A stretch of 64,000 bases of DNA, from the IMG/VR virus record IMGVR_UViG_3300042009_000026, positions 253,368-317,367 of that record. One strand, given 5' to 3'. Numbering within the stretch: position 1 is the first letter of the stretch; every line of letters begins with the position of its first letter. Under the pieces are notes generated by a model. It did not search any database. It saw only the letters and a program-made list of their open reading frames with translations, and had not been told where the DNA came from. Origin of the DNA: a virus (Duplodnaviria; Heunggongvirae; Uroviricota; Caudoviricetes). The position numbers and the translations under genes were made by a program. This document shows, piece by piece, positions 3,154-29,323 of the stretch.

Positions 3154-4602
3154 CTATTTAGGTAGAATGAACTGCGTATACGGACTCTGGTAAATTGCAG
3201 ACCCTTCATCCGTCATGAACACAGTCGCGTATGTGTAGGCACGAGGCCCAACAGCAATGACCAACACTTCTACCTTCGTAAACCCAGCACCAATTCGATT
3301 AAGCTGGTTGCGAGTTGGAATGTCCAACCCTAGGCACAGCTTAAGTTCCACGTCTTGCCCGCGAAACTTAATCTTCGGATTAATCGACTCAGTGTTCTGA
3401 GTAATCGATTTCAGAAGTTGTCGGATCTCTTTTTTCCCAGACGAGACCTGTTCGAAAAATGCGGATGTAATTTCATATGTTTCAACCCCATCACCTAAGT
3501 TCCCTGTTAGGTAATCATCCAGTTGTCGCTGGAGCTGCTGGAATGTCGCTACGGCATCGTTTGCCCGTCGCGGAGGGTTGAGGGTACGGCTAACCAATTT
3601 ATAATCGGCAGTCGACAATACCATGATGTCTGTATGCTTCGACAACAGATCCGCGCTAGCCGATTCAATACGGTTACGGATTTGTGCGTTGAACACGTTC
3701 GACAGATTGAGAATCCCCAATTCAGGATTATCACTCGGGAAACATGTTGCATGCATATTGATTACTGATTCCAGATAGGTATCTGGTTCGTAAGCTTTAT
3801 AGACACCAAAGGTTGCTTCGCTGATAGGTCGTCCGATCAACAGATCAGCTTTCGCTAATTTATCTTTCGGTGTATCCTGCGGTTTAAAACCGTAGTTATG
3901 CATACGACCCAGGCTGTACATGTAATAGTAACCGTCTGGTTCTTCACCTGTATTAAACCCGAACAACAAACGTGATTCCAATACTAATGGATTCACTGGT
4001 TGTTTCTTCAGCTTGTTGACTTTCTCGCCTTCTTGTTTGATTTCTACCGGCGCGGATTTGACTTCATGTCCTGCACCCAATAAAGCATTCGCATCAGCTT
4101 TATCGTTACCCATGTCGCCGGAATGACCTTTAACCCAAAAGAGGTCAAGCTTACGCTTAGGTTCTTCCCACGACGTCTTCAGTTCAACCAGACGTTTCCA
4201 ATAGTCAACGTTTGCAACTGGCATCCCATCAGATTTCACCCAATCATTTTTCGCCCACTTCGGAACGTACTGCGTCAGACCCTTACGAACATATTCGCTG
4301 TCCATTAACATGACCATCGATTTCGCAGGTGTCTTTAGTGCATATTCAAATGCACCAATCACAGCCCCTAGTTCACCCGTGTTATTCGTAGGGTTCTTCT
4401 CGATTGCACCATAAGCATCGATATACTCGATAACCGAAACTGTTTCGGCAGCTGGTACATCTTTATACCCTTTCGCTGTCGGTTGTTGTTTCGTCGCTGC
4501 TTTAGACGTCATGGCAACGTTGCTATAGGTGTAACCGTGAATACCCCAACCTGCTTTATTCTGGCGGAATGAACCGTCAGTATAAAGAACAATACCATCC
4601 AT
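3154..4602 (-). CDS. rnhA: Ribonuclease HI with long C-terminal extension (phiKZ gp155-like)
   Basis: YTDGS, TNNTGEL, DSEYV, WVKGHSG..GNDKAD catalytic motifs; SD GAGG. Confidence 0.92.
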   Translation of the reverse strand: MDGIVLYTDGSFRQNKAGWGIHGYTYSNVAMTSKAATKQQPTAKGYKDVPAAETVSVIEYIDAYGAIEKNPTNNTGELGAVIGAFEYALKTPAKSMVMLMDSEYVRKGLTQYVPKWAKNDWVKSDGMPVANVDYWKRLVELKTSWEEPKRKLDLFWVKGHSGDMGNDKADANALLGAGHEVKSAPVEIKQEGEKVNKLKKQPVNPLVLESRLLFGFNTGEEPDGYYYMYSLGRMHNYGFKPQDTPKDKLAKADLLIGRPISEATFGVYKAYEPDTYLESVINMHATCFPSDNPELGILNLSNVFNAQIRNRIESASADLLSKHTDIMVLSTADYKLVSRTLNPPRRANDAVATFQQLQRQLDDYLTGNLGDGVETYEITSAFFEQVSSGKKEIRQLLKSITQNTESINPKIKFRGQDVELKLCLGLDIPTRNQLNRIGAGFTKVEVLVIAVGPRAYTYATVFMTDEGSAIYQSPYTQFILPK

Positions 4603-7580: not shown

Positions 7581-8144
7581 ATGTCTTATCTGAATCCGAA
7601 TAAACTTAAAGCTTTCATGGCCAGCCTGGAAGATAGCGATGGTGTAGCGCGTCAAGTAGACGTTACCAATGCTAGTGCTTCAGCAACCAAAGATCATCCT
7701 GCCTCACCAGAAGCAGAAGCTAACTCTAATGGTGAAGCAGCTACTGCTGCCGATACCGTGAAGGTTGGTGATGGCGACGGCGTTACTCCAACTATTCAAG
7801 ACGCCATCAATGCAGGTGTACAAGTTGGTGAAGACATCACTAAGATGGAAGAAGCCAAAGCAGCTTGTGAACATCACATTGGTGAAGTAGCTAACTACAT
7901 CGACCGTAATGAATCTGTTCCACCATCGTTGGCTGAAGTAATCAAAGTAAGCTTGGCTCGTCATGACCGCAAGTTCTTTGCTCAGACTGTTCCAGCACTG
8001 GAAGCTTTCTCAGCACACACTGGTCGTATGACTACTTCCATTGATCTGTTGAAACGACTGAAGTCTGGCGTTGATACCATCAGCCGTGGTCTGGATGCAG
8101 CCCGCGAACAAAAAGCTCGACTGGAGGCAATTGCACATGGCTAA
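7581..8144 (+). CDS. Inner-head protein family member (propeptide module only)
   Basis: SD GGAG; ASLE and PALE sites; shares the LAEVIKVSL..HDRKFF..VPALE.F block with ORFs 8137 and 9075. Confidence 0.75.
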   Translation: MSYLNPNKLKAFMASLEDSDGVARQVDVTNASASATKDHPASPEAEANSNGEAATAADTVKVGDGDGVTPTIQDAINAGVQVGEDITKMEEAKAACEHHIGEVANYIDRNESVPPSLAEVIKVSLARHDRKFFAQTVPALEAFSAHTGRMTTSIDLLKRLKSGVDTISRGLDAAREQKARLEAIAHG

Positions 8145-8673
8145 GGTAAAACTTTCTAAACTGTTGCCTTCATTGGAATCGGAAGACGGTACCGCGGAAG
8201 TAGTAGAAGCTAAAGAAGTTAGTGCTGAACTGGGCAAAGCCGAAGTTCAACAAGTAGCTGACGATGGTTCGGGTAAAGGCGACGTAGCTGAAGCTGCTCA
8301 AGAAGTAGAAGTTGATGGCAAGGATTATACCGCTATCGATGAAGCTTCTAAACGTCAAGGTGAGATCATTCACAAGCAACTCGAACGTCTACAGGAAACC
8401 GAAGTATCAGTTGAAGCGTATATCGGTGTATTGCATACAGCTGCCGCTGCCAGTGATACTATTGGTTCTGGTGCTGCAGCAGTTATCAAATACGATCTGA
8501 CTTCGCGTTATCCAAAATTCTTTAGTAAGGTTGTTCCATCTGTAGAGTCTTTCGATGGTGAACATGGTCCTGCTCGTACTACTCGACTAGAACGGGTCCT
8601 GCTTGGTAAACTGGGCGAGATCAAAACCAGTATTGCTAAGAAACAAGAACAGTTGACAAAGCTAAAAAAGTAG
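8137..8673 (+). CDS. Inner-head protein family member ending in a -1 slippery site
   Basis: ATG 8137 with GGAGG SD; PSLE, VSVE, PSVE sites; ends CTA AAA AAG TAG. Confidence 0.75.
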   Translation: MAKVKLSKLLPSLESEDGTAEVVEAKEVSAELGKAEVQQVADDGSGKGDVAEAAQEVEVDGKDYTAIDEASKRQGEIIHKQLERLQETEVSVEAYIGVLHTAAAASDTIGSGAAAVIKYDLTSRYPKFFSKVVPSVESFDGEHGPARTTRLERVLLGKLGEIKTSIAKKQEQLTKLKK

Positions 8674-8690
8674 CAGTCTCGAAAGAGACT
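8664..8690 (+). other. Predicted programmed -1 frameshift signal (A_AAA_AAG plus GNRA hairpin)
   Basis: In-frame heptamer 8664-8670, 4-nt spacer, AGTCTC-GAAA-GAGACT at 8675-8690; -1 frame open 8640-9008. Confidence 0.75.
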
Positions 8691-9008
8691 TATCTAGAAG
8701 GTCCTGATAGTACGTTCACGCATCAAGGTAAAACCTACAGCGTAGATCGGTTGTTAGAACTAACCCGTGATCTCCCAGTTGTTCAATTCGACATTACTGA
8801 ACTCGGATGGATGATCGATGATGATTACGATTTAAAAAGAATGAAGGCTGCCGATACGTCGGTTCCTATTTGTGTCTATCAACTACCGAAGTCTGGGGCT
8901 TGGGTAACAATGGATGGTTATCATCGTGTTATCAAAGCACTCTACGTTGAGAAGCGTAAAACGATACCAGCCAAGATTGTTACAGAACAGCTACGTAAAC
9001 AGCTTTAA
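8670..9008 (+). CDS. ParB/Sulfiredoxin-like domain, probably the -1 frameshift extension of ORF 8137
   Basis: PICV...WVTMDGYHRV.KA motif; frame open from 8640 with no ATG/GTG/TTG before TTG 8751, which lacks a clear SD. Confidence 0.7.
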   Translation, partial: VAVSKETYLEGPDSTFTHQGKTYSVDRLLELTRDLPVVQFDITELGWMIDDDYDLKRMKAADTSVPICVYQLPKSGAWVTMDGYHRVIKALYVEKRKTIPAKIVTEQLRKQL

Positions 9009-21200: not shown

Positions 21201-22031
21201 TTACGACATGTAGCGAGGGCGCCGAGTAGCTGGACGACGTTCCCAACCCAGATTAGTAATCAGGTCAGATACATCGAGATGGCTAGCAGATTCCAAACCT
21301 TGAGCTTTACGCTTCTCAGCTTCATCTTGCAAGGCCCACAGAGTAGTCGGGTTAATCGTCATTTCTGTTTCAGCGAATGATTCTAGTGCAGGAGAGTTGT
21401 GCTTACCCGCTACATAGATACCACCTTCACCAACGAAGTCCCAGGTAGAGATTTCACGAGTGTACTTAATACCACGCATTACATCGTCTTGGGTAATCGA
21501 ACGTACTGAGCAATAAGTGTTGATGTGTGGATTGGTAATAGATGCTTCGAACTCTTTAGCGAAAGGACCGTAAGGTTTAACTTCAGCAATAACGAGTTTG
21601 CAAGGACGACCATTCTCATCTCGGCCATCGACAATAGTCAATGCACGGATGTGTGCGCAAACACGATCATCATCGATCTTACGGATACGACCCAGGTATT
21701 CCCGATCGTCCATATAGCGTTTGCATTTCTCACCATCTTTCAGAACCCATTCCCAAGGCTCAGGGTGTTTGAATTCCATGTACAGCACTTGCTTGAGCAA
21801 GCGGCGCATTAATGGAGAACCAGGTGTAAACATTGATACACCTGATGCGGCATCATAAAACATACCGGCAGAGTTTTGGGTGCCATAAGCGCCAACGCAG
21901 AGAGTGTAATACCCATCTGCGTCAGGAGTCAGGATGCCTTTCTTACCACCGGCAGTCAGAAGACTACCGCTAATACGTACTTGGTTACCGGCTTGCTTCT
22001 GGACACCAAAGTAATCTTGAGCTGTGCTCAT
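21201..22031 (-). CDS. Prohead (head maturation) serine protease (phiKZ gp175-like)
   Basis: EFKHP (His), YCSVRS (Ser), TWDFV (Asp) motifs; C-terminal ALE/GLE self-cleavage sites. Confidence 0.85.
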   Translation of the reverse strand: MSTAQDYFGVQKQAGNQVRISGSLLTAGGKKGILTPDADGYYTLCVGAYGTQNSAGMFYDAASGVSMFTPGSPLMRRLLKQVLYMEFKHPEPWEWVLKDGEKCKRYMDDREYLGRIRKIDDDRVCAHIRALTIVDGRDENGRPCKLVIAEVKPYGPFAKEFEASITNPHINTYCSVRSITQDDVMRGIKYTREISTWDFVGEGGIYVAGKHNSPALESFAETEMTINPTTLWALQDEAEKRKAQGLESASHLDVSDLITNLGWERRPATRRPRYMS

Positions 22032-22042
22032 AATGGTGTTCC

Positions 22043-22756
22043 TTACGTACGAAGAATTTCTTCAATCAGTTCTACAGACTCACTCGGGTTAACTACCGCT
22101 GTGTTGATAGCGTCAGCAAAGTAAGCACCGTTCAATCGGCTAGTGGTATCGGAGGTGTTCCAAACTACAGAGCGGAAAGGAATAACTTTAGGTGGGTTGG
22201 TGACAACATCCGAATGGTTATTCAGAATGTGTCGGTACAGTCGTGTCAGGTCGTCTTTATCACGAGCAGTTGTCGAGATAATCAGTTCCAAGATCGCACG
22301 TGAACCCAAGTTAACACCAGCATGCAGCGAAGCAGTGTCAAACATCTTGGCCATGTCGTAATAGTTCATGTACCACGGAATGTTCCCTTTAGCGACTAGT
22401 TCATCGTAAAGGTAATAAGTCAGTGTATCGTTCACTACGAGTTGGTTGTTCACAAATACCACATCACCAGGTTCAAAAGAGAACTCAAAGTAATCAGTAC
22501 CACGAACTGTAACTTTCTTAGTCGAGCTTGGACGGATCTGCATCATTGCAATTGTGTTATCAACACCGTAATATTGGTCATTCACAATGAGAGCATAGAA
22601 CCCAACGATAAAAACTTCAGAACCTAGGATCGCTAGGTCCTTATTCTGAAATCGTACAGGCACATGAATCTTAACAGGAGCATCTGTAACAGTGCTCCCA
22701 TTCTCTTGTAGATGTAGGTGTTGGAACACACGCTTTGCATCGCGTGTTAACTCCAT
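22043..22756 (-). CDS. Conserved phiKZ-like protein (gp176-like)
   Basis: 237 aa, SD AAGGGGA; synteny. Confidence 0.7.
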   Translation of the reverse strand: MELTRDAKRVFQHLHLQENGSTVTDAPVKIHVPVRFQNKDLAILGSEVFIVGFYALIVNDQYYGVDNTIAMMQIRPSSTKKVTVRGTDYFEFSFEPGDVVFVNNQLVVNDTLTYYLYDELVAKGNIPWYMNYYDMAKMFDTASLHAGVNLGSRAILELIISTTARDKDDLTRLYRHILNNHSDVVTNPPKVIPFRSVVWNTSDTTSRLNGAYFADAINTAVVNPSESVELIEEILRT

Positions 22757-23028
22757 TACTTGGTCCCCTTGATCTCTTTCTCAACCTTAGCTAAGTCAGC
22801 CTTAAATTGTTTCAGTGCTTCCGCAAGATCTTCCTCATCGGAGAGATACCAGGATTCACAGATACGATCATAAGCTTTCTCTTTCTTAGCATCACCATTG
22901 GTAGACGCATTCAGTACTTCCATGCGTGCAATCAATGGCTCCATTTCTTTAGGATACTTAGAAGCGAGGTTACGTACACGGGTTGACTGGCAACCCGCTT
23001 TATGAATACGTTGATCAAGGGTTAACGC
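22756..23028 (-). CDS. 90-aa domain, probable -1 frameshift extension of ORF 24647 (track calls 62 aa from ATG 22944)
   Basis: Frame open from 23049 to stop at 22756; entered through G_GGA_AAG; ATG 22944 has no clear SD. Confidence 0.6.
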   Translation of the reverse strand, partial: ALTLDQRIHKAGCQSTRVRNLASKYPKEMEPLIARMEVLNASTNGDAKKEKAYDRICESWYLSDEEDLAEALKQFKADLAKVEKEIKGTK

Positions 23029-24647
23029 TTTCCCGAGTGTGCCTCGAGACTAGCATCAGTATCTTCGTCTTCAGCATCCAGTTCATCGGCTTCATCAGTC
23101 TCTTCGACCAAAGGACCTTCACCGGTAGCTGCATCAGCGATAGCGCCTTCTGCTTCACCACCTGTAGGCTCCTCTAGTGCTGCTGGAGCTTGTTCGATAA
23201 CTTCAGGCTTGAACCGTTCGACTTGGATCTGACTGGCTGCCCAGACAGCGTACAGAGAGAACAGTGCGTTAGTGGACAGTTCACGACGAGAAGCTTCAGG
23301 AGCTTCTTGGCCAGCCTTATCCATCAGTTGCATATATTCCCAGTAAGTAGATTCAGGGAAGTAGATACGGCAGATCAGTTGACCGAAAGCAACGAACTCA
23401 TTGCACAGTTGTTCTGGACGAACAGCACGGATAGCATCAACGACTTTATCACGCAGACCATCTACTTGCATTTCAGCAAGAGTACCTTGACCAGCTTGAT
23501 TAACGAATGCTTCGATCATGTCTTGACGACGGGAACGTTCAGCATTGTCAGTAGCAGCTTGTTGGATCAGTGGATAGATAGCTTGGAACTTCTGAATGAA
23601 GTAGACCTTACGCTCTTCTAGTCGAGCTATGGTTTGGCTACCACTGTTTTCCAGAGCAGAACCCAGGACAGCAGACAGGTCGCCATTAGCAGCACGCCAT
23701 TGTGGTTCAACGTCACCATTCAGCCATACCACTAGACGACGGTTCTCGATTGCATTAGCTGCTTCAGCGCGGAGTACCAGCACGCCATTGCGCTGGTCTT
23801 CAGCACGACGCTGATAAGCACGCAACAGATAAGCACCAATCATCTCGTGAAGCATACGCATCACATGCATCCATTCTTCGTAGCCTACATTCATCTCGCC
23901 TACTGGTTCGCATGGGTTCTCACCCAGGTGACCACACAGGAAGTATGCCAGCAACAGACCATCAATGTTGAAAGGAGCATTAGTCCCAACAACGAAAGAA
24001 AGTTCACCAACAGTAAGAGCTTTGTTACGATTGAACAAGTCAGCATAAGTACGGCTGATGACTTCTGGATCTACACCCAGCAACCATTCGGTAATTTGTT
24101 CACGTTCAGCATGTGGGTTATTGATCGAGACCATTTCGATGATCTGTTCAACACCTTGAGCTGGGAGAATAAATGTACGGTATTGAGGTTGTGGATTTAC
24201 GTTTGCATAGTTCTGCAAATGAGAAGTCAAACGTGGTTCCGAATGGATAGCATTGTAACGGAAGATGTCAGCACGAATATCAGCAGAAGTAGAAGCTTGC
24301 TGACGTTCATTGAAGTCACGTACCATCGAGTCAATACCCGGAATAACAACGTTGGCTACATTGTACTGGATCTTACCCAGAGCAGCAGCAACCAGACTGA
24401 CCATATCCTTGTTGTCTTCTTCGACAGTGATAGGTTGTTCTTCGTTCATTTCGGTAAAGTGATCTTCAACCGATGCAACGAGTTCATCGGATACTTCTGG
24501 ACCGGCGGTAGGTTCATCTACAGCATAGCCGCTTGCGAACTGAGCAACAGGAAACTCAGGATTCGGAACGACCAGCACTTGACTCGATTCAGTCAGTTGT
24601 TGTGCAATCAGTTTTACAGACTGCACGGTGTTGGCGATATCAGACAT
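23022..24647 (-). CDS. Head-associated protein (phiKZ gp177-like) with acidic C-terminal tail
   Basis: ATG 24647 with AAAGGA SD; ASVE, AALE, ASLE protease-type motifs; synteny. Confidence 0.7.
   Translation of the reverse strand: MSDIANTVQSVKLIAQQLTESSQVLVVPNPEFPVAQFASGYAVDEPTAGPEVSDELVASVEDHFTEMNEEQPITVEEDNKDMVSLVAAALGKIQYNVANVVIPGIDSMVRDFNERQQASTSADIRADIFRYNAIHSEPRLTSHLQNYANVNPQPQYRTFILPAQGVEQIIEMVSINNPHAEREQITEWLLGVDPEVISRTYADLFNRNKALTVGELSFVVGTNAPFNIDGLLLAYFLCGHLGENPCEPVGEMNVGYEEWMHVMRMLHEMIGAYLLRAYQRRAEDQRNGVLVLRAEAANAIENRRLVVWLNGDVEPQWRAANGDLSAVLGSALENSGSQTIARLEERKVYFIQKFQAIYPLIQQAATDNAERSRRQDMIEAFVNQAGQGTLAEMQVDGLRDKVVDAIRAVRPEQLCNEFVAFGQLICRIYFPESTYWEYMQLMDKAGQEAPEASRRELSTNALFSLYAVWAASQIQVERFKPEVIEQAPAALEEPTGGEAEGAIADAATGEGPLVEETDEADELDAEDEDTDASLEAHSGKR
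23028..23034 (-). other. Predicted -1 slippery heptamer G_GGA_AAG
   Basis: Zero frame TCG GGA AAG CGT TAA; same heptamer as the lambda G/GT frameshift. Confidence 0.65.
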
Positions 24648-24657
24648 GATGTTTCCT

Positions 24658-24855
24658 TTAGATTGCGAGTTGTTTAGCAATACGGGCAGCCAGGGCTTCC
24701 TGGATGTCTTGCTTAGTTAGGAATACCCCGTTCAATGTGGACGAAGTATGTTCGGTGCCGAGGATGCGCAGAATTGCTTCTGCGCCCAGTTCGACAGCGG
24801 CAGACAGAATCGAAAGATTCTGCCCGTGTGCGACGTTGTTACTTAGATTTTGCAT
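24658..24855 (-). CDS. Small hypothetical protein
   Basis: ATG 24855 with GAGGA SD, overlapping the RNAP beta end. Confidence 0.6.
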   Translation of the reverse strand: MQNLSNNVAHGQNLSILSAAVELGAEAILRILGTEHTSSTLNGVFLTKQDIQEALAARIAKQLAI

Positions 24856-27800
24856 TTGCAGTTCCTCTGTAGACACCTACCAGGTGCTTTGACAATTCAG
24901 CAAGAAGGATAGTGGTTGTTCCGATCAGCTTAGGGCTCAGTACCATCCGTTCTTCAACGGAAGTGTTACCGAAGATAAGGTCGATATCCAATCCAGATTT
25001 AGTCTGGTTAACGCCACGCATCACACGAGAGAATACAGTCTTCATCTGGTTAGCAACTACACCTTTGTCACCGACACCACAAGGGATATCGTGATCGATG
25101 TAAACGTTGATTACCAATGACTGAGGTTCAAGACCATTACCACGGATGCGGTATTCATGATCCACTTCACCGGAGAAATATTCGTGACCGCGAGATTTAG
25201 CTTGCTTCTCACGTTCTTGGTCAGAAGCATAAGCTACTTGACGAAGGCTATCGGACATCTCATCACGATCGCCGTGATAGAAACATTCGATCTTGGATAC
25301 GTAACCAACAACCTTGGCACGTGGTGTATAGTTGGATAGTTTCGCGAGTGTTTCACGCGATACCTCATCAAACACTGAACTCTTACCCGAGTCGGAATCG
25401 ATAATCGTACATAGAATTGAATCCAAATCCACGTGATCCCCGATCTTCACCATGCCTTCGATGTTTTGATCAAAGCGTACAGAGATCGATTTGATCTTCG
25501 TAGTCTGGGTATTCATCTTAGCGGCACAGCTTTCGGAAATAACCGATCCGTCTTCCAGTGTGTCCAAGTTGTCACTAAATGCAACGACTGTGTTGACACC
25601 GGCTTTCCAGATTACTTGCCCAGGGGACATGCGATCGTTCTGGAAATACTTCTCATTATAAGCCAGTGTTTGCCCACGTTTAAATGAATCACCAGCTTTC
25701 AGGTCTGAGACGATTGAGTGCGGGTAATGTGTACCTGCAGCAGATCCGTGGATCTTACCCATTTGGTACGATGTAGTTTCACCATTCGCATACTCGACAG
25801 TAATCCCATGGTCATCAACGGCAACAACCTTACCGTCGTCTTCCGCCGCAGAAGCAAAGATGGAGCTAGTCCGCTGAGCAACAATCTGTTCATACCCAGT
25901 ACGGAGAGGAGTCGGTTCATATCCATCAGCATAAATCCCTTGTTGTTGTTGGATTGAGATAAAGTTGATACGCTTAGTATCGTCGTTCGTTGTAGCCACA
26001 CCCAACAGTGCACAAGTCGACAGTTGTCGAGCTGGACCATCGGTAGTAGGATCGAATGGACGAGTAGTACCACGCATCGTATTGAAGTTAGCATCTGGTG
26101 TCAGATAAGCAATAACGCCCACGTCACCGGAGTCAACTGTAGACTCAGATACTACACCTACGTCAGCTTCACCGTACACACGAGTACGAGCAACCATCGA
26201 TGTAGTTGAACGACCACCATCACCACGATAGGTCATGGATTCCTGTTCACGAATGTTAGCCAGTGGGTTAGAATCTTCCACCACCATTACGGTTGGATCT
26301 TGACAGATCTTCTTCCATACAACCGAAGGGTCCATCACGACTTGAACAGCAGCAGAACCAGTAGCGCCATTGAAACGCTTCACTGCTTTGTTGAGTTCAT
26401 TATAAACAGCACCCGCCATACGCTCGTAACCACGATAACGCATGTATGCACCATCTACTTCAGCAGGCGACCAGTCGATCAGTAACATATCAACAGCACG
26501 ATACAGCAAGCCGTCAAATGTAGTAGGTTCACCCATCTGCTTTAACAGACCTTCAGTAATCGGGTCCATCCAAGCTGCGAACAAAGCATCGATCTCTTTA
26601 GTGAATCGAGCAGTCATCCCAGTTTCTAACAAGAGACGCTGATAAACATCAGGCTTATCGAAATCATAGATCGAGAAGTTAGGTAACAGTTTAGCGTATT
26701 TCCGCATACCGCCAAGAATCAGTTGTGTACGGTAATCCCCACGATCAAACACCAGTACTTCGTCTTGGAAGGCGAGTACATAGTTGTCAGAAGAAAGAGG
26801 AATACGTTCACCACGACGGTGACGAGTGAACTTAGCATTCAAACGTTTCAGTGTTGCGGTCAAGCCATACCGGTAACCCAATACGAAAGCCAGTGGAAGA
26901 TCTTTCGAACCCACGTTCATGAAGGCGCCTTCGAGTGGAGCTTTGGCTTGATCTAAGCCCAGCATCTCTACAACCGATCCGAGTGGTTCAAGATTGTCCT
27001 GGCTCTTAATATAGAACTGACCTGTCTTGTCTACTAGGATTGGCGTCTTGCCGTTATGAACACCAACCATCGTGTACTGTTTTGTTTCGTGCTTGGTAGC
27101 ATCGATCTTGTACTTGGTCTGGAAGTATTCAATGTGGTCATCGAACTTGAAGTACAAGAACATAGGACCAGAAGTGAAACCACGGAAAGCAGAACCCAGT
27201 TGCGTGTAGACACGAGGCAGTGCATATTCGGATTGATCGAGTTCAGCGTAGAGTACGTGAGTAATGCGATCGTCTTCCGGATCTAGACCACGTTCACGAA
27301 TCTGACGAGTAATCCAAGCATCGTAGTTGTGGGCGGCCAAATGCGAACGAGTAATGAACGTCTTGTTGTAATACGATGTCATCGCTACTGTATCAGGCTT
27401 CACCTTACGGATAGGCAAGTCAGCGCGTTGCATACGCATCCGGTAAGTAACACCGTTAGACATGAATCGACCATCACGGTCAACCACAGGAATACGGAAA
27501 TAAATAACACCGGACTTACCACGTACAGGCTTCAATGTAACTTTGTGAATCTCGTAGTGGTTCATTGCGTTACGCACTTCTTCCACTTCGTAGTTCACTA
27601 CAGAAGTACCTTGTTTCTGTACCGAGAGTACAGCGTTAATCAAGTCCTTATTACGAAGGGAAGTCTGATACTTACGCTGCATCGCTTTTAGCTTAGAACC
27701 CAACATGGACTTGTCGAGTACTGTAGGCGAATCAGCTAATACCGTATCAGCAGGTAGTTCATAATCTTCTTGAGCATATTCCATCGCTTCTTCAAGAGAC

Positions 27801-29323
27801 TTGTTTGAACCGAATGGATCTTTGATGGTGCGATACGACTGTGCATCAGTCATGGCTTGTTCGAATGTACGTGGAGCAATGATACCCAACTTGTACAGAT
27901 CGTAAGCCGGTTGAGCAACGCCAGCTACAATGGGGACTGCTTCAGCCACTTCAGCAGGGATGGCATCGATTCGCTGAGTTTCGACCTTAAGCTCCCGTGG
28001 CCGATGAGCCAAGTCAGCATCACCTTCAATTTGGAGCTTCGTCGTGAAGAGCTCAGCATCCGGCGGTGTATAAGTTGCTCCATCTTCGGAGAAGTCAAGA
28101 GTGGGGAGACTAAAGGCCGGGAGATCGAGAGTGTCTTCGACGTGTGTACTGTCGACTTGACCATCCTCAGTTTCTGTTTCAACACCGTCTTCTTCTTGTT
28201 CCTCGTCCAGCTCATCTTTGTGCTTCCCGTTCTCATCCTCTTCAACATCTACTAATGAGGAGTGATCGATTACTGTGCTCATTACCTCAGCTTGATGACT
28301 ATATTCTGTCATCGCTGTAAGCAGAGATAATACTCGGCGTTGCATAACTGCTGGGGGGAAGAAAGCTTCCATACCCAGGGAATCTACAAAAGACTCAGTA
28401 GCAACTTGATTGGTCAAACCGTATTCTTGCATGACCCGATGGATGTGATTAAAAGCAGGTTGTTCTTCTGCTTTAATATCCTCGTAGCCGATATCAAAAA
28501 CTTCTTTACCGAAACGAGTGATAAACTCTTCAACCGATACTTCTACATCCGCATCTTTAGAACCATCACGCCATTCATCTAGTGCACCCATGTTCAAAAC
28601 AATGAACCGATCACGAGCACGGACCAAGAACCAGATCTTGCTGTACATATCCGGTTGAACTACCGACATCATCGACTGTTCACGGAATGGACCTAACCAA
28701 CGATACAGATCCCAAATAGAGAACTGTTGTGGCGTAGTAAACGTCTCCAGCATGGTTTGGTTCTGGTTATCCGACATCCGTTTAAAGGAAGCCAGATCAG
28801 GCATGTTCTCTGGAAGATGAATCTCTACGAACTGTTCCCAACCGAAACGACGGTGAGAAGCAGCAACGTTTTGCCAGAAGGTACGCTGGTTGTTAGACCA
28901 ACGCAGATACTGGGCTTTGAAGTTATTCTGATAGATCCACTGAGGGTCCAGCAGATTGTAGTTGAACACCATGACGTTGAGCGGGTTGATTGACAACGCC
29001 GCATCTTTAGTCAGGGGTTTGAAGAATGCATTCTGTTGACGGAACTCCGCCATCAGCTTAGTACCAGTCAATGCACTCTTACGTGGGTTGCCTTCTGTAG
29101 ATACCAGATGTGACACATGTTCGATGTAGACCTTACCCATCACGTTGTTAAACAACGGATCAGTTTGGCTAGGTCCACGAACAGCAGTGTTAGGATCAGA
29201 GAAGTGAACCACTGAACGATGAGGCAGGAATAGCTTGTTCAGTGGATGAAGCTTGGGGTTTTGAAGTTTGCCTTGTTCGAAGACAGTATACTGTTTCCGA
29301 AACTGTTCAATTGCTAAGCGCAT
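24839..29323 (-). CDS. Virion RNA polymerase beta-like subunit (phiKZ gp178-like)
   Basis: FMSNG..Y, EST.D.G.VG, NDD.KR, LEDG.VISE, VGDK....NQMK, GNTS beta motifs. Confidence 0.9.
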   Translation of the reverse strand: MRLAIEQFRKQYTVFEQGKLQNPKLHPLNKLFLPHRSVVHFSDPNTAVRGPSQTDPLFNNVMGKVYIEHVSHLVSTEGNPRKSALTGTKLMAEFRQQNAFFKPLTKDAALSINPLNVMVFNYNLLDPQWIYQNNFKAQYLRWSNNQRTFWQNVAASHRRFGWEQFVEIHLPENMPDLASFKRMSDNQNQTMLETFTTPQQFSIWDLYRWLGPFREQSMMSVVQPDMYSKIWFLVRARDRFIVLNMGALDEWRDGSKDADVEVSVEEFITRFGKEVFDIGYEDIKAEEQPAFNHIHRVMQEYGLTNQVATESFVDSLGMEAFFPPAVMQRRVLSLLTAMTEYSHQAEVMSTVIDHSSLVDVEEDENGKHKDELDEEQEEDGVETETEDGQVDSTHVEDTLDLPAFSLPTLDFSEDGATYTPPDAELFTTKLQIEGDADLAHRPRELKVETQRIDAIPAEVAEAVPIVAGVAQPAYDLYKLGIIAPRTFEQAMTDAQSYRTIKDPFGSNKSLEEAMEYAQEDYELPADTVLADSPTVLDKSMLGSKLKAMQRKYQTSLRNKDLINAVLSVQKQGTSVVNYEVEEVRNAMNHYEIHKVTLKPVRGKSGVIYFRIPVVDRDGRFMSNGVTYRMRMQRADLPIRKVKPDTVAMTSYYNKTFITRSHLAAHNYDAWITRQIRERGLDPEDDRITHVLYAELDQSEYALPRVYTQLGSAFRGFTSGPMFLYFKFDDHIEYFQTKYKIDATKHETKQYTMVGVHNGKTPILVDKTGQFYIKSQDNLEPLGSVVEMLGLDQAKAPLEGAFMNVGSKDLPLAFVLGYRYGLTATLKRLNAKFTRHRRGERIPLSSDNYVLAFQDEVLVFDRGDYRTQLILGGMRKYAKLLPNFSIYDFDKPDVYQRLLLETGMTARFTKEIDALFAAWMDPITEGLLKQMGEPTTFDGLLYRAVDMLLIDWSPAEVDGAYMRYRGYERMAGAVYNELNKAVKRFNGATGSAAVQVVMDPSVVWKKICQDPTVMVVEDSNPLANIREQESMTYRGDGGRSTTSMVARTRVYGEADVGVVSESTVDSGDVGVIAYLTPDANFNTMRGTTRPFDPTTDGPARQLSTCALLGVATTNDDTKRINFISIQQQQGIYADGYEPTPLRTGYEQIVAQRTSSIFASAAEDDGKVVAVDDHGITVEYANGETTSYQMGKIHGSAAGTHYPHSIVSDLKAGDSFKRGQTLAYNEKYFQNDRMSPGQVIWKAGVNTVVAFSDNLDTLEDGSVISESCAAKMNTQTTKIKSISVRFDQNIEGMVKIGDHVDLDSILCTIIDSDSGKSSVFDEVSRETLAKLSNYTPRAKVVGYVSKIECFYHGDRDEMSDSLRQVAYASDQEREKQAKSRGHEYFSGEVDHEYRIRGNGLEPQSLVINVYIDHDIPCGVGDKGVVANQMKTVFSRVMRGVNQTKSGLDIDLIFGNTSVEERMVLSPKLIGTTTILLAELSKHLVGVYRGTANAKSK

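Follow-up and report, generated by a model that had tools for sequence, protein, structure and literature searches.

We analyzed a 64,000-nucleotide stretch of viral DNA (hereafter the window; positions 253,368 to 317,367 of the IMG/VR record IMGVR_UViG_3300042009_000026) in which the gene for a phiKZ gp177-like head protein ends in the slippery heptamer G_GGA_AAG. The record is a 317-kb genome with terminal repeats, and the region is approximately 82% identical both to Pseudomonas phage Psa21 (Tepukevirus; genome announcement, PMC6544186) and to phage D6, two phiKZ-type jumbo phages. The source is a Psa21-like, phiKZ-type giant Pseudomonas phage. The gp177-like gene (23022 to 24647, minus strand, ATG at 24647) encodes 541 residues ending in D-A-S-L-E-A-H-S-G-K-R, the last codons being TCG GGA AAG CGT TAA. 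The heptamer (23028 to 23034, minus strand) is phased X_XXY_YYZ with this open reading frame (ORF), and the stop codon TAA (23022 to 23024) lies one codon, CGT, beyond it. The −1 frame (GGG AAA GCG TTA ACC and onward) opens five codons upstream, after a TAG, and extends from 23034 to 22756 through 92 sense codons to a TAA at 22758-22756; its predicted product is modeled as a five-helix domain, which we refer to as the module. Codons 3 to 30 of this frame (22945 to 23028, minus strand) contain no ATG, GTG or TTG, and we call them the bridge. The first ATG, at codon 31 (22942 to 22944, minus strand), is the start of a listed 62-residue ORF that is simply the tail of the −1 frame. Termination in the 0 frame is predicted to yield 541 residues, and a trans-frame product would have 630 (540 plus 90). 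These features had been pointed out in an original prediction made from the letters of the window, and all of its sequence details were confirmed: the heptamer at the gene end, the 90 further codons, the two product sizes, an S-L-E tripeptide after an acidic linker, a CGGGTTG/CAACCCG hairpin and a TAATG overlap with the next gene.

As a bare string, G_GGA_AAG is not above chance in the window (8 copies against 6.05 expected); in frame, it is unique to this site among the 373 ORFs of the 317-kb genome. We then screened all 373 ORFs for an efficient heptamer at the stop combined with a −1 frame 50 or more codons long that goes without a start for 25 codons or more, and only two genes had both features, the gp177-like gene and a second head protein gene described below. 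Relatives carrying the module are Psa21 and the IMG/VR genomes 3300046692_000091 and 3300041405_000060 (L012 and L013). In line with the original prediction, which had proposed the conservation of GGGAAAG and of the −1 ORF in related phages as a check, the heptamer, the TAA and the open −1 frame were identical in all four module-bearing phages, and the codon between heptamer and stop varied (CGT, CGC or TTC). An assembly error was rejected because four independent assemblies have this layout in common, and transcriptional slippage at the heptamer because its A-run is just 3 nucleotides long.

Several lines of evidence support the view that the 28 start-less codons are coding. Across the four phages, codons 3 to 21 of the −1 frame differ by six codon changes, four of them synonymous, with nonsynonymous rates (dN) of 0 to 0.075 and synonymous rates (dS) of 0.07 to 0.46. 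Over all 92 codons there is neither a stop nor an indel in any of the four genomes, even though dS exceeds 1 in the distal part, and dN/dS is well below 1. Scanning 1.8 billion representatives with a profile recovered 26 members of a small domain family (17 at E ≤ 1e-10), and the module fits this AGCxS...CESWY helical family (phrog_1034-like) over the whole domain, including its N-terminal LxxR-x3-AGCxSTR motif. The bridge aligns with the N-terminal part of proteins called at 87 to 94 residues, among them the 89-residue P0005; in these proteins the Met falls at, or no more than one residue from, the AAA codon of the heptamer. It likewise aligns with a 107-residue coding sequence (CDS) that occupies the corresponding syntenic place in phage Viktualia and with the module where it ends many longer proteins, and homology of this kind extends to about 25 representatives. 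Of the 26 columns that are invariant in the family alignment, 11 fall in the bridge; the 28 codons upstream of the ATG at 22944, on whose conservation the original prediction had staked itself, thus proved to be the most conserved part of the domain family. Including them improved the match to phrog_1034 400-fold (E 1.6e-4 for 92 residues versus 0.068 for the 62 residues without them), a match that is itself weak even over the full 92 residues.

Structure prediction with AlphaFold2 from a seven-sequence alignment returned a five-helix model (mean predicted local distance difference test score, 90.9; predicted template modeling score, 0.80). Helices 1 and 2 lie inside the bridge, and helix 3 begins upstream of Met31. 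Translation begun at 22944 would therefore yield a truncated piece of the modeled fold, since the bridge carries invariant residues together with the first two helices and the start of helix 3 precedes Met31. The domain had no match in Pfam, and fold searches against PDB and BFVD gave generic helical bundles only. We found no promoter, terminator or repeated regulatory element in the bridge, the nucleotide block of which is unique in the window.

These data bear directly on the simplest alternative, namely, that the module is an independent small gene of 59 to 62 residues translated from an internal start (ATG 22944 or TTG 22935; a later ATG in Psa21 and L012), with an untranslated leader and a fortuitous heptamer. 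Gene callers make just such a call (P0003, P0004, P0012 and the Psa21 CDS), an ATG is found at codon 31 or 34 in all four phages, and a GGAG with a duplex energy of −5.2 kcal/mol lies by TTG 22935. However, the product would be devoid of 11 of the 26 invariant residues and two of the five helices, and changes in the supposed leader are codon phased and mostly synonymous, with clear protein homology. The starts themselves are also poor. The Shine-Dalgarno duplex at ATG 22944 amounts to −0.8 kcal/mol, compared to medians of −5.6 for the 373 ORFs and −2.4 for random positions, in agreement with the original remark that this ATG lacks a clear Shine-Dalgarno sequence. In Psa21 and L012, codon 31 is GTT and the first ATG comes three codons later, at codon 34, with a random-level energy of −2.3, while the GGAG is merely 3 nucleotides from TTG 22935 and is not conserved. 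No internal start is conserved in position among the four phages. Codons 31 and 34 (22933 to 22944, minus strand) were seen to covary, two phages having ATG...TTG and the remaining pair GTT...ATG. Non-canonical initiation within the bridge was rejected as well: the sole near-cognate codon, ATT or ATC at codon 10, comes after conserved residues and lacks a Shine-Dalgarno sequence. On balance we consider an independent gene unlikely, and a −1 slip appears to be the sole evident route to a complete helical domain.

A combined scheme, in which a packaged frameshift fusion would coexist with an internally initiated cytoplasmic short form, shares the evidence for frameshifting and would additionally account for the Met retained near codons 31 to 34. 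The internal Met is without a Shine-Dalgarno sequence, though, and the short form would probably be unfolded, with helix 3 truncated and helices 1 and 2 missing in the model. Of the explanations considered here, we judge dual expression the least probable.

To place the module in context, we examined the protein to which it would be joined. The 541-residue protein matches phrog_3841 (E 1e-98) and is 43% identical to PHIKZ177; with full-length family similarity and synteny in agreement, we assign the gene as a gp177 homologue. The gp177 of phiKZ, a head protein, is processed at SVE-60 by the prohead protease, interacts with the inner body and enters the host by injection (PMC5694885, PMC10449902), and a version with a C-terminal 3×FLAG tag is still packaged and injected (PMC10449902). 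The gp175 protease cleaves after S/A/G-x-E, which is the rule for phiKZ head proteins (PMC5694885, PMC10449902). The gp177-like protein of the window carries an N-terminal S-V-E at residues 59 to 61 (24465 to 24473, minus strand) that is homologous to the mapped phiKZ gp177 site (PMC5694885), and by analogy we infer prohead-protease cleavage there. A second candidate site, S-L-E at residues 533 to 535 (23043 to 23051, minus strand), lies three residues before the slip site and follows the acidic tail of the protein, and an S-x-E is present at this position in all four module-bearing phages. Because the motif is short and the tail acidic, its reading as a protease site is suggestive only.

The same architecture was also found without any frame change. 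Eleven of the 26 family members are larger proteins (192 to 695 residues) that bear the domain at the C terminus. One of them, P0017, has 695 residues and is encoded on a 24.8-kb Logan contig. It is homologous to gp177 (35% identity across 535 residues, E 1e-103; phrog_3841, E 9e-102), with the domain in frame at its C terminus (40% identity, E 4e-20) and S-L-E directly before it; P0009, another in-frame fusion, also has an S-L-E immediately ahead of the domain. A gp177-domain protein therefore also occurs naturally as a plain fusion, as P0017 joins the two in a single frame.

Considering these findings together, we think it probable that a programmed −1 frameshift at G_GGA_AAG yields a minor, C-terminally extended gp177 of 630 residues. 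Most ribosomes would stop at the TAA at 23024-23022 and release the 541-residue head protein. A minority would slip back by one nucleotide as tRNA-Gly and tRNA-Lys give up GGA-AAG and pair with GGG-AAA instead (23034-23028), and would then read on from GCG and add 90 residues, so that a compact five-helix domain would sit on the acidic C-terminal tail of gp177. The fusion would ride with gp177 into the prohead, and since gp177 homologues are packaged in the head and injected, the capsid would receive the domain in low copy number. The gp175-like prohead protease may then cut after S-L-E, freeing a 95-residue fragment. That 3×FLAG-tagged phiKZ gp177 reaches both the virion and the next cell supports, by analogy, the feasibility of packaging such a fusion.

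We next considered elements that might assist the slip. A conserved stem-loop with a 6-bp outer stem and an 8-bp inner stem (14 bp in total; 22972 to 23011, minus strand; −15.9 kcal/mol) lies downstream of the heptamer. Its loop is variable among the phages, its stems show one G-C to G-U change and no compensatory pair, and it has a z-score of −1.88 and no family match in Rfam. The outer stem begins 16 nucleotides past the heptamer and the inner stem 30 nucleotides past it, compared to the spacing criterion of 5 to 9 nucleotides for stimulators. The pairing in the downstream RNA that the original prediction had pointed out thus exists and is conserved, but a stimulatory role was not supported, given the distance, the lack of covariation and the marginal z-score. 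An alternative TAACCC/GGGTTG pairing is possible and weak (−5.0 kcal/mol). A GAGG upstream of the heptamer is not conserved, in contrast to the stop one codon downstream. It had further been suggested that shifting tunes expression of the gp176-like gene, the ATG of which (22756) is overlapped by the stop of the extension in the sequence TAATG. We dropped this translational coupling, because the overlap occurs in this phage only (its relatives have gaps of 3 to 16 nucleotides) and the gp176-like gene has a strong Shine-Dalgarno sequence of its own.

Several observations weigh against frameshifting at this site. No convincing stimulator was found, the stem-loop being distant and without covariation. 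The layout is present in just four closely related genomes with one heptamer type, so that there is no independent variation of the heptamer at the gp177 site. P0017 is a single metagenomic prediction. In each of the four phages an ATG persists at codon 31 or 34, close to where helix 3 begins, and internal initiation could be the reason. In the bridge, 13 of 17 synonymous sites are conserved, compared to a 45% background, a level equaled by 6.4% of windows from neighboring genes, and 12 other 60-nucleotide blocks in the 8-kb neighborhood score at least as high as the bridge block, in which 52 of 60 nucleotides are invariant; we accordingly rejected exceptional nucleotide conservation of this block. 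Moreover, gene calling may have turned the ends of longer proteins into some of the apparently stand-alone 89-residue proteins, because the bacterial forms of about 505 residues described next keep a Met at the same spot, just before the domain.

These bacterial forms are encoded on Pseudomonas chromosomes and on megaplasmids of about 1 Mb (L037 to L040, match at 4001 to 4260), where the domain ends a family of proteins of approximately 505 residues that has no match in Pfam or PHROG. Scans of IMG/VR with P0005, P0017, P0021 and the gp177 alignment disclosed no further frameshift-type locus, and a metagenome scan returned only L010, which is of the bacterial 505-residue type.

The module is also dispensable, being absent from D6, RVTF4 and four IMG/VR relatives, which likewise counts against a programmed event. 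In a gp177 tree, the basal split of the Psa21/D6 clade has module-bearing phages on either side; the invariant heptamer, TAA and open frame thus span this split, which speaks for frameshifting. With the module on both sides and absent in relatives, its distribution marks it as accessory: it may be old with repeated losses, or recombination may have exchanged it. Such a patchy history, with loss or exchange within the clade at a gp177/gp176 site that is a variable hot spot, would suit a decaying remnant, that is, a once stand-alone or in-frame gene that lost its start or frame in an ancestor and appears conserved through short divergence or recombination. Decay is nevertheless difficult to reconcile with 92 codons free of stops and indels in four genomes despite a distal dS above 1, and with a dN/dS well below 1. 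In addition, far from being the most degraded part, the bridge is conserved best, and the very point where the frames join is occupied by an exact canonical heptamer. We therefore regard a remnant as very unlikely, only marginally ahead of dual expression, and retain programmed frameshifting as the preferred explanation.

The second gene recovered by the genome-wide screen had surfaced in the heptamer control. It encodes an internal head protein (8095 to 8673, plus strand), ends in A_AAA_AAG TAG (heptamer at 8664 to 8670, stop at 8671 to 8673) and is followed by a ParB/Srx-like −1 ORF, the entire junction spanning 8095 to 9008. The −1 frame comprises 114 codons, matches the ParB-like phrog_17560 (E 3e-21) from residue 7 and has its first canonical start 29 codons in. 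At the corresponding junction, D6 has G_GGA_AAG, RVTF4 has C_CCA_AAG and three other relatives have NCA_AAG, with a stop following in every case, and an S-x-E occurs in the new frame after the junction in all six phages examined. The two sites are alike in combining a head protein gene, a stop-proximal slippery site, a start-less −1 ORF from a family that is free-standing elsewhere, and an S-x-E at the junction. They differ in that the proteins are unrelated both upstream and downstream, the heptamer of the sibling site varies among relatives, with three canonical forms, and its S-x-E follows the junction, whereas that of the gp177 site precedes it. The sibling site raises the prior that this phage lineage would use −1 frameshifting.

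An extension of this idea, which we put forward tentatively and as somewhat short of probable, is that Psa21-like phages have a general system to frameshift-fuse, package and cleave small proteins, with at least two unrelated head or injected proteins (gp177-like and the internal head protein) as carriers. Passengers that are otherwise free-standing, namely, the helical domain and the ParB/Srx-like protein, would be split from their carriers by an S-x-E site. They would be loaded at low copy number, released, and probably injected with the DNA into the next host.

The surrounding genes all lie on the minus strand, in the order virion RNA polymerase beta (24839 to 29323), a small ORF of about 66 to 72 codons, the gp177-like gene, the module ORF, the gp176-like virion structural protein gene (phrog_2926; 22043 to 22756; Shine-Dalgarno energy, −7.6) and the gp175-like head maturation protease gene (21201 to 22031). 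This order agrees with the annotations of Psa21, D6, RVTF4 and phiKZ, in which the small ORF between the polymerase and gp177-like genes is also annotated; synteny and these annotations likewise identify the protease gene, the product of which is the presumed S-x-E cleavage enzyme. The slot between the gp177- and gp176-like genes is empty in D6 and RVTF4, a 147-nucleotide gap in phiKZ, a gene for 228 residues in PhiPA3, and two small genes in Viktualia (slot coordinates, L004:3598-4255, L014:4022-4168 and L015:4289-5297). P0024 and P0026 are in-frame fusions of homologues of the two Viktualia slot genes. The gp177 homologues of PhiPA3-like and Viktualia-like phages (L031, L033 to L036, and L004) have a long acidic tail followed by a conserved terminal Pro-Leu-(Ala/Thr/Val). 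Within the protease gene, 59 of 60 nucleotides covering codons 2 to 30 (21940 to 21999, minus strand) are invariant across the four phages, with approximately 95% of synonymous sites frozen. The block ranks first of its kind in the 8-kb neighborhood and may conceal an RNA or DNA element within the gene.

Programmed frameshifting in tailed phages is textbook knowledge for tail chaperones and is also known for the T7 capsid. The lambda G/GT system and the conserved tail assembly chaperone frameshift of double-stranded DNA phages reportedly do not need strong downstream structure. The original prediction had called the present site lambda G/GT-type, and this held for the heptamer and the proposed mechanism: G_GGA_AAG is identical, the −1 slip would occur a few codons before the stop, and the product would be a minor C-terminally extended protein. 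It did not hold for the genes, which are head genes rather than tail chaperone genes, are non-homologous to G and T, and lie between virion RNA polymerase and head protease genes. In the gpG/gpT arrangement, two ORFs overlap in the interval from the major tail gene to the tape measure gene, whereas the upstream protein here belongs to phrog_3841. Furthermore, the extension is not T-like but belongs to a family that is also stand-alone, and a protease motif is present at the junction. T7 gene 10A/10B is a head protein gene in which ribosomes shift to the −1 frame shortly before the end, so that a minor head protein with a C-terminal extension is made; there the major capsid protein gains a short tail that belongs to no independent family, whereas here an injected internal head protein would gain a folded module. 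Compared to phiKZ gp177, the gp177-like protein is a homologue with the conserved N-terminal S-V-E, and it differs in that phiKZ gp177 is without an extension.

By analogy, the logic appears closest to that of retroviral and totiviral Gag-Pol, in which a packaged structural protein is occasionally extended, a passenger is carried at low copy number, and a maturation protease releases it, packaging and cleavage being our proposals for the phage. The phage differs in being a bacterial system with another heptamer context, no demonstrated pseudoknot and a 90-residue helical domain as its passenger. No frameshift is reported in the searchable literature for head, inner-body or injected protein genes of phiKZ-like phages, and none is annotated at this site in the public records of Psa21, D6 and RVTF4.

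If the proposed frameshift is real, the annotation of a 62-residue hypothetical protein would be replaced by that of a 630-residue trans-frame product, and a concrete mechanism for setting the copy number of a passenger in a giant capsid would be at hand. The small domain family, which occurs free, fused in frame and, as we propose, fused by frameshifting, would then be a new family of probable cargo, packaged or injected. Considered with the ParB-like sibling site, the frameshift would also open to direct testing how jumbo phages select the proteins that they inject. Should the more general system exist, it would constitute a bacterial-virus counterpart of Gag-Pol and a new delivery route for early-acting effector proteins.

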